The translations under genes and the position numbers were made by a program. Positions 17,588 through 20,233 of a stretch of DNA of 64,000 bases are shown one piece after another. Positions within the stretch are counted from its first letter, which is position 1. Each line of letters opens with the position of its first letter. The notes beneath the pieces were generated by a model that did not search any database, was not told the DNA's origin, and saw nothing but the letters and a program-made list of their open reading frames with translations. The DNA comes from an uncultured Candidatus Saccharibacteria bacterium (GTDB lineage: Bacteria; Patescibacteriota; Minisyncoccia; Phycocordibacterales; UBA9973). Location of the stretch: the NCBI GenBank assembly GCA_964446965.1, contig CAYUQD010000001.1, positions 21,586 through 85,585 on the forward strand, written 5' to 3'.

Positions 17588-18007
17588 ATGGCCACTACCA
17601 CCACCCCAAAAACTTCATCAGCAAAGAAATACATCGAGACTATCGGTCGTCGCAAGACAGCAACTGCTCGCGTGCGTATTACCCCTGCTACCAAGGCAAG
17701 CTACATGATCAACGACAAGGATCTCGCAGTATACTTCCCAACTGCAGAACTCCAAAAGATCGTTACTGACCCATTCAAGGTCGCTGACAAGGCGTACGCC
17801 GTATCAGTACATGTGAAGGGCTCTGGGATACACTCACAAGCAGAAGCAGTCCGTCACGGTATCTCTCGAGGTCTTGTGAAGGAAGACGAGGCTGACAAGA
17901 CCAAGCTCAAGCAAGAAGGATTCCTCAAGCGTGATCCTCGTTCCAAGGAACGTCGCAAGTTCGGTCTCAAAAAGGCCCGCAAGGCAGGTCAGTGGAGTAA
18001 GCGATAA
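17588..18007 (+). CDS. rpsI: 30S ribosomal protein S9
   Basis: GRRK.A.ARV...V.V.GSG...QAEA.RHGI.R.L...C-terminal ..R.KERRK.GL.KARK. Confidence 0.9.
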   Translation: MATTTTPKTSSAKKYIETIGRRKTATARVRITPATKASYMINDKDLAVYFPTAELQKIVTDPFKVADKAYAVSVHVKGSGIHSQAEAVRHGISRGLVKEDEADKTKLKQEGFLKRDPRSKERRKFGLKKARKAGQWSKR

Positions 18008-18015
18008 ATACAGAG

Positions 18016-18040
18016 AAGTCCCGACTGGGGTTTTTTTGTT
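18016..18040 (+). terminator. intrinsic terminator after rpsI (short hairpin + T7)
   Basis: cccgactgggg followed by TTTTTTT. Confidence 0.4.
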
Positions 18041-18066
18041 GCTTTTATGTATAGTTTTGATATAGT

Positions 18067-18338
18067 CGGAGAAGAATGTTCCTAGCGAACGGCTTGGGTC
18101 GTAAAGATTACCCACTCTTCCTAATTTTTTATTCGAGAGAGATTGGAATAAGCCTAAAGGGGGATAAACCCAGATTTGCAGCTAAGGCATAGTGATGTTA
18201 TGGCTTGAGCACCGCTCGCCTAACATGTAAAACACAAAGTAACGGCAACGTTCGCCGAAGCTCTTAGGGCAGCTTAAAAAAGCTTTTCCGGTAGTAAGAA
18301 CATTTTAAAAGACCTCTCTTTTGAGAGGGCTTTTTTTA
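18067..18338 (+). ncRNA. candidate ~270 nt structured RNA, or a terminator-ended leader/attenuator of grpE (identity unknown)
   Basis: No plus-strand ORF of 60 aa or more. Candidate promoter TTGCTT-16-TATAGT at 18039-18066. The 5' segment aagaatgttc (18073-18082) can pair with gaacattt (~18300-18308). Strong intrinsic terminator cctctc-tttt-gagagg + T7 at 18311-18338. Confidence 0.3.
18311..18338 (+). terminator. intrinsic terminator (cctctcttttgagagg + TTTTTTT)
   Basis: Perfect 6-bp stem, tetraloop, T7. Confidence 0.6.
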
Positions 18339-18366
18339 TTGCAAATTTTCAGTATAATAATGACCT

Positions 18367-18924
18367 ATGAACGACGATGAAGATGTAGTGTTAGACCCAG
18401 AGTTCGTCGAGTCCACTGAGGATGGGGATGAGCTCGCTGGCAGTGCACAAATCAAGAAACTCCAAGAGAAAATCAAGTCTCTCGAGAAAGAAAAGACCGA
18501 GTACCTCGACGGCTGGCAGCGCGCTCGCGCCGACTATGCCAACCTCCAGAAGTCTACTGACGAAGACAAAAAACGGTTCAAGGAACTCTTTGCAGAGCGA
18601 TTTGTTGAGGACTTGATCCCAGTTGTCGACAGTTTCTCTATGGCGATGGGCAACAAGGAGGCGTGGGAGAAAGTAGAGCCGACATGGCGTACTGGGGTAG
18701 AGTATATCTACAACCAGCTTATGGCAGCTCTGCAGGGACACGGACTTACTCTCATAGGGGAGCCGGGTGAAGTATTTGATCCCACACTACACGAAGCTAT
18801 TAGTGAGCACGAGACAGATAATCCAGCCAATGACCATACAGTCATGTCAGTCATCCAAAAGGGGGTGAAACTCGCAGATACCGTGATACGGCCTGCTCGG
18901 GTGGTGGTATACAAGGCGGTCTAA
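18367..18924 (+). CDS. grpE: nucleotide exchange factor GrpE
   Basis: Acidic N-terminus, coiled coil, GrpE C-terminal beta domain (...H.A....D...V..V.Q.GY.L.D.V.RPA.V.V). Confidence 0.85.
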   Translation: MNDDEDVVLDPEFVESTEDGDELAGSAQIKKLQEKIKSLEKEKTEYLDGWQRARADYANLQKSTDEDKKRFKELFAERFVEDLIPVVDSFSMAMGNKEAWEKVEPTWRTGVEYIYNQLMAALQGHGLTLIGEPGEVFDPTLHEAISEHETDNPANDHTVMSVIQKGVKLADTVIRPARVVVYKAV

Positions 18925-18953
18925 GGATCGCTTTTTTGCTCTCTACCCATATA

Positions 18954-18982
18954 TTGACTTTATATAGATAATATGGTATGAT
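18954..18982 (+). promoter_or_regulatory. strong promoter TTGACT-17-TGgTATGAT (extended -10)
   Basis: Near-identical copy at 22196-22224. Confidence 0.5.
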
Positions 18983-19035
18983 ACGCTTAGGTTACATTCT
19001 TTCAAAAATCATTCAAAAACGAAAAAAAGAAACAT

Positions 19036-19536
19036 ATGAAAAAGGTATTTCAGTTAATTCTGATTGTAGGGTTATTTGCCCTCACCAGCTGTGGCAAAGA
19101 TTATGTGCCAACAATTGTAGATCCAACCCTGCCTGTGGCAGATGGTATCTCGGTGGTGGCGACACTTAGTCGCCCCAGCTCATTTTTTGATGGCAATACG
19201 GCGAACTATGATATACAAATTAATGCAGGATACAATTTCGGATCATCAAATCTGTATATTGATCACATTACACGACGTCAATCAAACGGATTTGCACCTG
19301 TTCGGGAAACATACCCTTTGTATTTAACCATTTTTCCGAAGCCGGGCGGTATTACTATCCGCAATATAAAACTTGGTGAAATATACCAAATAGTATTGCA
19401 GGACGTATATGGCAACTGGCAAGTTATCTTTGCCCAAGAATGGTGTGACTGTCAGGGTAGAAAAGCTGACAAACCCACAGTCAATAAATTCATTACTGAA
19501 AGTAATGCACATCGAAAAAAGGCAATCAAGAATTGA
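19036..19536 (+). CDS. hypothetical lipoprotein
   Basis: Signal peptide with lipobox LTSC. Confidence 0.5.
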   Translation: MKKVFQLILIVGLFALTSCGKDYVPTIVDPTLPVADGISVVATLSRPSSFFDGNTANYDIQINAGYNFGSSNLYIDHITRRQSNGFAPVRETYPLYLTIFPKPGGITIRNIKLGEIYQIVLQDVYGNWQVIFAQEWCDCQGRKADKPTVNKFITESNAHRKKAIKN

Positions 19537-19551
19537 TATGCAACAAAGTAG

Positions 19552-19581
19552 AAACCCGGTATATTTTACCGGGTTTTTTTA
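19552..19581. terminator. bidirectional terminator (aaacccggtat-atttt-accgggttt + T-run)
   Basis: Inverted repeat between converging genes. Confidence 0.55.
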
Positions 19582-20118
19582 TTGAACCATGTTTACAAAT
19601 TCCTTCTCGGTCTCTATATCAAGTGCGTCAGTTACGAGTATCATAACTTCGGTTTTCAAACCGAGGTCTTTTTTTATGTTTGCAAAGAGGTGTTCAAAGG
19701 GGAGCTTTGAGATCCAGACACTATTTTTTGCGGCGACGAACCCCGCTTTTTTGAGCAGGTAGCGGAGCGCATCTCGCTCTGTCTTGCGATCCTCGGGGAA
19801 GTCGAGCATGATGATGCGCCATTTGCCATCCCAGTGCGGGTTGAATACGACGTCTTCGTGATCGAGTTTGATGCTATGCGCCTTGCGTTTACCCTCTGCT
19901 GTGAGGCGAGCATAGGCTTGCTGACCCGAATGGTGATGCTCGACGAGGCCAGTGTCCCGCAAGCCTTTGAGAGAGCGTGTGAGTGCGTACAGAGCCTTGG
20001 GCGCGTCGGTATCGCCGAGTTGTTCAGTCAGGGTCGCAACAGAGATTGCGGGCTTGTCAGCGAGGAGTTTGATGATTTTCTTTGAATAATTGGCCTTGTC
20101 GCCAGTATTTCTTGACAT
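19579..20118 (-). CDS. winged-helix transcriptional regulator, PaaX-like (N-terminal wHTH plus C-terminal PaaX_C/Cas2-like domain)
   Basis: ...LYALTRSLKGLRDTGLVEH... wHTH; C-terminal WDGKWRIIMLDFPEDRKTERDALRYLLKKAGF...NSVWI. Confidence 0.45.
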   Translation of the reverse strand: MSRNTGDKANYSKKIIKLLADKPAISVATLTEQLGDTDAPKALYALTRSLKGLRDTGLVEHHHSGQQAYARLTAEGKRKAHSIKLDHEDVVFNPHWDGKWRIIMLDFPEDRKTERDALRYLLKKAGFVAAKNSVWISKLPFEHLFANIKKDLGLKTEVMILVTDALDIETEKEFVNMVQ

Positions 20119-20140
20119 AGAAAAACGATATCATTATACT
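20112..20140 (+). promoter_or_regulatory. dnaK promoter TTGACA-17-TATACT
   Basis: The -35 box overlaps the start codon of the divergent regulator gene; the minus-strand TATAAT (20133-20138) overlaps the -10 box. Confidence 0.45.
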
Positions 20141-20145
20141 GCTAT

Positions 20146-20172
20146 TTGTACAAGTATTTTGCGGTCGCAAAA
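20146..20172. promoter_or_regulatory. palindromic operator candidates TTGTACAA (20146-20153) and TTTTGCG-gt-CGCAAAA (20157-20172) on the dnaK leader
   Basis: Perfect inverted repeats located between the dnaK transcription start and the divergent regulator. Confidence 0.35.
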
Positions 20173-20233
20173 CAGACGTTAAATCCCGAATTCACGACCA
20201 AATACTTTTAGTAATTAATTTTTTCACACACAT

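Follow-up and report, generated by a model that had tools for sequence, protein, structure and literature searches.

In the 64,000-nt stretch of DNA analysed here (the window), the gene order rpoA–rplQ–rplM–rpsI is followed by a 359-nt spacer and then by grpE, which raises the question of what the spacer encodes. An earlier note, made from the letters of this DNA, had described an ORF-free element in the spacer, bounded by two intrinsic terminators, and offered two readings of it: an independent small RNA of the 6S or SRP size class, or a heat-shock leader of grpE whose terminator is conditionally read through. Comparison with related genomes, structure modelling and family searches lead us to conclude that positions 18073–18338 probably hold a free-standing structured non-coding RNA gene of ~265 nt, which forms its own cassette and exerts no control in cis over grpE.

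The rpsI–grpE spacer and the promoter of grpE

The features of the locus to which the argument refers are as follows (+ and − denote the strand).

ending at 18007: rpsI
18010–18039, +: intrinsic terminator of rpsI, with a weak GC core (CCC-GACT-GGGG) and T7, found by the terminator scanner
18027–18042 (left) and 18327–18342 (right): 16-nt direct repeat (family D1; left copy GGGGTTTTTTTGTTGC), 14 of 16 positions identical, flanking a 300-nt insert
18039–18066, +: putative RNA promoter TTGCTT-16-TATAGT, 8 of 12 consensus positions, with a predicted start at ~18073
18073–18338, +: putative non-coding RNA, ~265 nt, running from the predicted start through the terminator T-run
18311–18338, +: RNA terminator, hairpin CCTCTC-TTTT-GAGAGG (18313–18328), then GC and T7 (18331–18337)
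18330–18358, +: conserved grpE promoter block CTTTTTTTATTGCAAATTTTCAGTATAAT, −10 at 18353–18358, marking the downstream boundary of the RNA
18367–18924, +: grpE, start codon 8 nt past the −10, mRNA probably leaderless
within 18925–19578: lipoprotein-like ORF of 166 residues downstream of grpE, no Pfam match
19579–20118, −: PaaX_M-family regulator gene, 179 residues
from 20234: dnaK

The two terminators that the earlier note placed at the ends of the element were both detected by the scanner, each as a GC-rich hairpin with a T-run (18010–18039, and 18313–18328 with its T7). Equivalents of the former are present after rpsI in all relatives, and the grpE ATG lies ~29 nt past the T-run of the latter. 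The promoter proposed for the RNA is present in the sequence, and the one homologue of the element (see below) has a better promoter at the equivalent place, although TTGCTT-16-TATAGT itself, with its 8 of 12 consensus positions, scores below the threshold of the promoter scanner. Loci of relatives were gathered by a GrpE-anchored scan of genome contigs, which yielded 74 loci; the GrpE relatives from species-representative genomes all belong to CPR MAGs of the Paceibacteria/Parcubacteria type.

The TATAAT reported 8 nt before the grpE ATG is indeed found, at 18353–18358 with the ATG at 18367, and a TATAAT or TATACT box stands 7–10 nt before the ATG in nearly all relatives with 50–100% identical GrpE. 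It is part of a block, TTTTTTATTSCNAATTTTCAGTATAAT, which is conserved across the clade, the −10 ending 7–10 nt before the ATG and the −35 region being occupied by the T-run of the upstream terminator. In the shortest spacers (61–66 nt; L002, L006, L011 and L013) the rpsI terminator abuts this block, and in longer spacers the block always lies downstream of the last terminator, whichever that is. Because the −10 box ends 7–10 nt before the ATG, the grpE mRNA should be leaderless, and because the promoter block follows the last terminator, the terminator at 18311–18338 lies upstream of the grpE promoter and not within a leader; on these two grounds we reject the attenuator and thermosensor readings. 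A conserved promoter of its own appears to drive grpE in this clade, giving a leaderless mRNA.

A transcript that starts at 18073 and reads through 18338 under heat or with a ligand would nevertheless make the element a cis-acting grpE leader (attenuator, riboswitch or thermometer), and several features recall one: the element stands directly upstream of grpE in both species that carry it; its layout is that of an aptamer followed by a terminator, as in attenuating leaders and riboswitches, where a folded domain directly precedes an intrinsic terminator upstream of a gene; and GAGAGAG (18134–18140) could, judged by eye in the window, pair with the 5′ arm of the terminator, CUCUCUU. Unlike such leaders, however, the element has the conserved grpE promoter between its terminator and the ATG and apparently no conserved anti-terminator, the GAGAGAG/CUCUCUU pairing having no counterpart in the homologue on inspection of the sequence. 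The same promoter follows directly after the rpsI terminator in relatives with ~62-nt spacers, ~22 of 24 close relatives are without the element, and matches to riboswitch, leader and thermometer families are terminator-driven only. An attenuator or riboswitch in the grpE 5′ UTR is discarded because the −10 box comes after the terminator and only 8 nt before the ATG, and an RNA thermometer (ROSE or FourU) because grpE lacks an SD and would have next to no 5′ UTR, and no thermometer family matched. With that promoter downstream of the terminator and most relatives devoid of the element, the conditionally read-through heat-shock leader of the earlier note falls, and we consider cis control of grpE very unlikely.

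Homologue and predicted fold of the RNA

Among the relatives whose GrpE is ~60% or more identical, ~24 at species level, only one carries a related element, in the same spacer: locus L007 (CAYYSI010000001.1), with identical copies in L079 and L080. Contigs of the L007 type also occur in sequencing runs SRR13208889 and SRR26856460, and one almost identical to the window in run ERR2985262. GrpE of that species is only 72% identical to GrpE of the window. The L007 element is ~365 nt long, ~100 nt longer than that of the window through an expanded 5′ domain. It has a promoter, TTGACC-17-TAGTAT with a TG, at a relative place equivalent to that in the window, a closing helix, AAGUGU(UUU)/(AAA)ACACUU, in the place of the end-joining helix P1, and a terminator hairpin with T7, and its folding energy gives z = −2.9 against shuffles. 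The parts of the predicted RNA are listed below in the order in which they occur in the window.

18073–18081, +: P1, 5′ strand AGAATGTTC (RNA AGAAUGUUC), pairing with 18298–18306
18082–18155, +: variable 5′ domain, 2 hairpins here; 4–5 hairpins and ~130 nt longer in L007
18095–18099 / 18110–18114, +: 5′-domain hairpin UGGGU/ACCCA
18160–18174, +: hairpin Ha (GGG/CCC), then conserved CCCAGA, invariant between the window and L007
18175–18188, +: helix Hb, 5′ strand UUUGCAGC-UAA-GGC, pairing with 18254–18267
18195–18226, +: hairpin Hc, long, 13 bp; in L007 its place is taken by a 12-bp hairpin unrelated in sequence
18241–18252, +: hairpin Hd, AACG-GCAA-CGUU with a GNRA loop; GGC-AAAU-GCC in L007
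18254–18267, +: helix Hb, 3′ strand GCC-GAA-GCUCUUAG, pairing with 18175–18188
18271–18284, +: hairpin He, AGCUU-AAAA-AAGCU; UGAAUU/AAUUCG at the equivalent place in L007
18289–18297, +: conserved junction CGGUAGUAA, directly before the 3′ strand of P1, identical in L007
18298–18306, +: P1, 3′ strand GAACATTTT (RNA GAACAUUUU), pairing with 18073–18081

The pairing of the two ends that the earlier note had pointed out holds, with coordinates corrected by 1–2 nt: P1, a 9-bp helix, is predicted in the MFE as well as the centroid fold and was also picked up as inverted repeat I1, and an end-to-end helix of at least its length arose in 119 of 20000 shuffles (0.6%). The folding energy of the window element is modest (z = −2.0 against shuffles). 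The G-U pairs in P1 and Hb, together with the orientation of the promoter and the T-run, point to the + strand for the RNA. Homology to L007 in the 5′ domain is partial and alignment-dependent, and two folds compete there, an MFE helix GGCUU/AAGCC and a homology-based pairing of CUAGCGAA with UUCGAGAG that contains two mismatches.

The 3′ halves of the two elements have their helices in identical order (Ha, Hb enclosing Hc and Hd, He, CGGUAGUAA and the 3′ strand of P1) and share exact blocks of 6–9 nt, namely CCCAGA, UAAGGC, CGCCGA and the CGGUAGUAA junction, the last of which is found in the rpsI–grpE spacer of no locus other than these two. Helix Hb reads UU.G.AGC-UAA-GGC / GCC-GAA-GCU.U.AG in the window and CC.A.GGU-UAA-GGC / GCC-GAU-ACU.U.GG in L007; of its 9 pairs, two are changed on both sides, three on one side and none is broken. 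Three of the four pairs of Hd are likewise changed on both sides. RNAalifold, applied to a plain MAFFT alignment, recovered Hb independently. A covariance model that had only the window sequence and its structure as input retrieved L007 at 34.1 bits (E 1.6e-5, 70.5 kb), whereas a sequence-only model from the same input gave no match at E ≤ 10. When the two elements are aligned by fitting to the model, each of the 54 cells is paired and two-sided changes are seen in 8 pairs; only 3 of 500 shuffles did as well, and slid controls gave at most 3 two-sided pairs, figures that come from two distinct sequences and hence carry weak statistics, with a fitted alignment that leans towards the model. At a comparable divergence, alignments of other intergenic DNA extend no further than the promoter block. 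Taken with a promoter and terminator of its own, the conserved architecture and compensatory changes of the L007 homologue support the independent small RNA that the earlier note had put forward.

Searches for further members covered several collections. Models R1 and R2 found none in the gathered loci, and twelve look-ups by exact protein among the GrpE clusters closest to that of the window returned only ORF cassettes or empty spacers. A 22-base two-block pattern gave a single match in metagenome contigs (L075), which lies in a coding region and was set aside as chance, and 0 matches in viral contigs. A looser three-block pattern gave 19 matches in viral contigs, by estimate about the number expected by chance, all of which the model rejected; blastn against phages gave no match.

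The internal loop of Hb places UAA (18183–18185) opposite GAA (18257–18259). The UAA/GAN motif, found in rRNAs, ribozymes and riboswitches, has the signature ccUAAg/uGAagg (PMC2615604), and in both species the Hb loop is a 3×3 loop flanked by Watson–Crick pairs (GC-UAA-GGC/GCC-GAA-GC in the window, GU-UAA-GGC/GCC-GAU-AC in L007). As far as sequence goes, it fits this signature, which is typical of compactly folded RNAs; the likeness is one of sequence and would indicate a compact fold, not a function.

From these features we propose that the RNA is made from its own sigma-70-type promoter at 18039–18066, ends at the terminator at 18311–18338 and has its ends closed by the 9-bp P1. Its conserved core, in the 3′ half, would comprise the GGG/CCC hairpin with CCCAGA, a UAA/GAN-type long-range helix, a further hairpin and the CGGUAGUAA junction, with Hb closing a three-way junction that bears one long and one short hairpin, and the 5′ half would be a variable expansion domain. 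Conservation is concentrated in junctions and internal loops, which argues for a stably folded RNA that acts in trans and whose conserved junctions probably bind a protein or ligand. A base-pairing antisense role seems less apt, and a search for antisense targets in the other 64 kb found no complementarity above chance. Because ~22 of 24 close relatives lack it, the element is dispensable and could be drifting.

Known RNA families, coding potential and decay

The Rfam covariance scan that the earlier note had suggested gave no 6S, SRP, tmRNA, RNase P or thermometer match. At the gathering threshold, the 4227 families returned nothing for the element in the whole window and 20 loci. At E ≤ 10, a 601-nt region (17900–18500) yielded no 6S, SRP, RNase P, tmRNA, thermometer or riboswitch, and the 458-nt L007 spacer no 6S, SRP, RNase P or similar RNA; in E-value mode, the window, L007 and L001 spacers gave only weak, terminator-driven matches to unrelated sRNAs and leaders. 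Nor did ARAGORN find a tRNA or tmRNA anywhere in the window. Direct reading of the element agrees. The SRP domain IV motif (a GNAR tetraloop with conserved loops, symmetric and asymmetric) is absent. The P4 consensus of RNase P RNA has a 5′ strand of the GAAAGUCC type and a 3′ strand of the ACAGAA...GGCUUA type, and these motifs are also absent. A multi-branched fold emerges from the MFE and centroid predictions and from the helices shared with L007, in place of the largely double-stranded 6S rod with its large central bubble. As far as Rfam, ARAGORN and direct reading go, we therefore rejected 6S, SRP and RNase P RNA, each of which also lacks a covariance match, and tmRNA, a combination of a tRNA-like domain and a tag reading frame that ARAGORN did not detect.

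It might still be argued that a housekeeping RNA of this kind (6S, SRP, RNase P or similar) is so divergent in CPR that the Rfam models miss it. The element does resemble 6S and SRP RNA in size class, in its helix-closed ends and in being a stand-alone gene with its own promoter and terminator, and RNAs of CPR bacteria tend to be divergent, with 6S seldom annotated in this group. Against this stand the failure of any family to match at E ≤ 10 in either species, the lack of tmRNA and of P4 or domain IV motifs, a supported fold that is branched and not a 6S-type rod, a length difference of ~100 nt between two close species and a location in a cassette site that is dispensable and, in sister species, occupied by different cargo. 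We regard a missed housekeeping RNA as highly improbable. A parallel is offered by the orphan large ncRNAs in Rfam, such as raiA, which are likewise non-coding, a few hundred nucleotides long, equipped with their own promoter and intrinsic terminator, and built as multi-helix junctions with conserved unpaired blocks; the element differs from these in having no Rfam match, in being found in two species only and in occupying a cassette hotspot.

The earlier description of the element as ORF-free needs qualification, as a 38-codon ATG ORF exists at 18076–18192; gene prediction on a Logan assembly includes it, and GGAG stands 4 nt upstream. Although the gene call and the SD-like GGAG speak for a functional small protein, the ORF has no homologue among 5.8 billion proteins and no Pfam match, and it is not conserved: L007 has no equivalent, its first ATG opening a frame of 3 codons, and the conservation between the two elements lies mainly downstream of the ORF. 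That the locus is a small-protein gene is hardly credible on this evidence. When 217 spacer ORFs of relatives were compared with both elements by tblastn, the lowest E was 0.006, as the number of queries predicts, and DNA alignment of the element with rpsI, grpE and rplM, with shuffles as controls, showed no similarity.

One further resemblance concerns the frame of the 38-codon ORF (18064–18170, including 5 codons before the ATG), which is similar to residues 79–112 of the lipoprotein-like ORF (19270–19371), with 12 of 37 positions identical and a BLASTP E of 8e-5 for the single comparison. A profile of the five-member lipoprotein family, run against six-frame translations, did not reproduce it; the resemblance is missing in L007 and is at about chance expectation for ~224 queries. 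It is probably a chance similarity, though not fully explained.

This resemblance would be welcome to the remaining alternative, in which the 300-nt insert is a decaying, functionless cassette remnant whose helices are partly chance and whose similarity to L007 is residual ancestry. The spacer is indeed a hotspot with rapid turnover, relics accumulate there (as the degenerate copy of the rpsI 3′ end in L001, L005 and L034 indicates), most relatives lack the element, and the folding z-scores are modest. What speaks against decay is that the homologue is detectable through structure and not through sequence, that Hb, Hd and P1 show compensatory changes, that promoter, closing helix and terminator are intact in both species, and that comparable intergenic DNA cannot be aligned beyond the promoter block; the lipoprotein resemblance vanishes with the family profile and stays at chance level for its ~224 queries. 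We judge a relic unlikely, while giving it appreciable weight, and retain a free-standing RNA gene as the preferred reading.

Cassette exchange beside rpsI, and the leader of dnaK

Synteny of rpsI and grpE is preserved in nearly all 74 loci, with spacers that range from 22 to 2232 nt. The small ORFs that they contain fall into 15 or more unrelated families without a Pfam match; these families recur in combinations that differ from species to species and, in the examples read (L003, L008, L009 and L012), have an apparent promoter and terminator of their own. The range of spacer lengths, the variety of modules and the 16-nt repeats flanking the window insert, which are made up of a terminator tail and RTTGC, indicate that the spacer is a cassette hotspot. 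Like integron-like arrays and hypervariable islets, it holds varied promoter-to-terminator modules between two core genes, and these recur in different combinations with similar boundary sequences; unlike those systems, it shows neither an integrase nor attC-like sites nor mobility genes in the flanks examined, and its boundaries are simply a terminator T-run and a promoter. The RNA gene would be one such promoter-to-terminator cassette, inserted between the rpsI terminator and the conserved grpE promoter, and its position beside heat-shock genes would be incidental to the hotspot.

A bolder suggestion, which we offer tentatively and think more likely wrong than right, is that we see in the element the first member of a new class of CPR RNA, one that folds compactly, has a five-way junction and a UAA/GAN loop, and travels as accessory cargo in a promoter-to-terminator cassette. 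Were this so, an RNA cassette would be competing with many small-protein cassettes for one recombination hotspot, and strain-specific cargo functions (for example, in host interaction or defence) would be carried out by RNA and not protein. A literature search found nothing relevant on non-coding RNAs of CPR/Patescibacteria; an RNA gene of promoter-to-terminator layout whose branched core is conserved and which has no relative in Rfam would be a candidate for a largely blank list. In these small genomes, the spacer represents a defined slot beside core ribosomal and chaperone genes in which accessory protein or RNA modules are swapped.

A second sRNA-like cassette, of ~110 nt, was seen in other loci (L001 at ~2340–2470, L099 at 2340–2470 and L009 at ~2360–2495), upstream of different ORFs in different species. 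Its core reads GGAGUAG...CGAACAACGAGGCG-loop-CGCCUACAAU; GUAGG pairs with CCUAC and GGCG with CGCC, and the module ends in a terminator of its own. Rfam gave no match for L001 in E-value mode or for L001 and L009 at E ≤ 1. In some spacers, the intact rpsI is followed by a second, partial and degenerate copy of its own 3′ end and terminator (L001 2200–2335, L005 2167–2295 and L034 2311–2412), probably a recombination footprint at a cassette boundary. A GC-rich module in L001 and L005 that had looked SRP-like proved to be this duplicate. The spacer between grpE and the regulator gene (18925–19578) is variable as well, relatives carrying small ORFs of 84–165 residues there and some carrying nothing.

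The absence of CIRCE and HAIR elements stated in the earlier note was borne out: CIRCE (TTAGCACTC-N9-GAGTGCTAA) had 0 matches with up to 3 mismatches allowed, and HAIR (CTTGAGT-N7-ACTCAAG) matched at chance level only, never near grpE or dnaK. The leader of dnaK (20141–20233 in the window), by comparison, is strongly conserved across the clade (L003–L017 and L082–L103). It consists, in order, of the −10 TATACT, GTACAAGTATTT, a palindrome TTTYRCG-NN-CGYRAAA, (C)GGTAGAAAT and AAAATACTT. The palindrome is near-perfect (20160–20175 in the window, TTTTGCGGTCGCAAAA), and AAAATACTT and AAGTATTT, whose spacing varies, make up an outer inverted repeat. Judged from its sequence, this region is a candidate for a clade-specific heat-shock operator or structured leader that replaces CIRCE/HAIR; for the inner palindrome a DNA operator is favoured, because its half-sites vary without compensation in L004, L008 and L010. 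An apparent likeness of the RNA element to the dnaK leader (CGGTAG..., AAGTRTTTT) was dropped when a 14-leader nhmmer profile gave no match to the window or L007 element at E ≤ 100.

The PaaX_M-family regulator combines a winged-helix and a Cas2-like domain; in most close relatives (~50% GrpE identity or more) its gene is kept between grpE and dnaK, divergent from dnaK, and it is missing in more distant loci. This protein is a candidate regulator of the dnaK operator. The place to look for a conserved heat-shock control element is the dnaK leader beside the PaaX_M-family gene, not the region upstream of grpE. A motif, CAGTATAAT, occurs at the grpE promoter and again on the minus strand overlapping the dnaK −10 (20133–20147).
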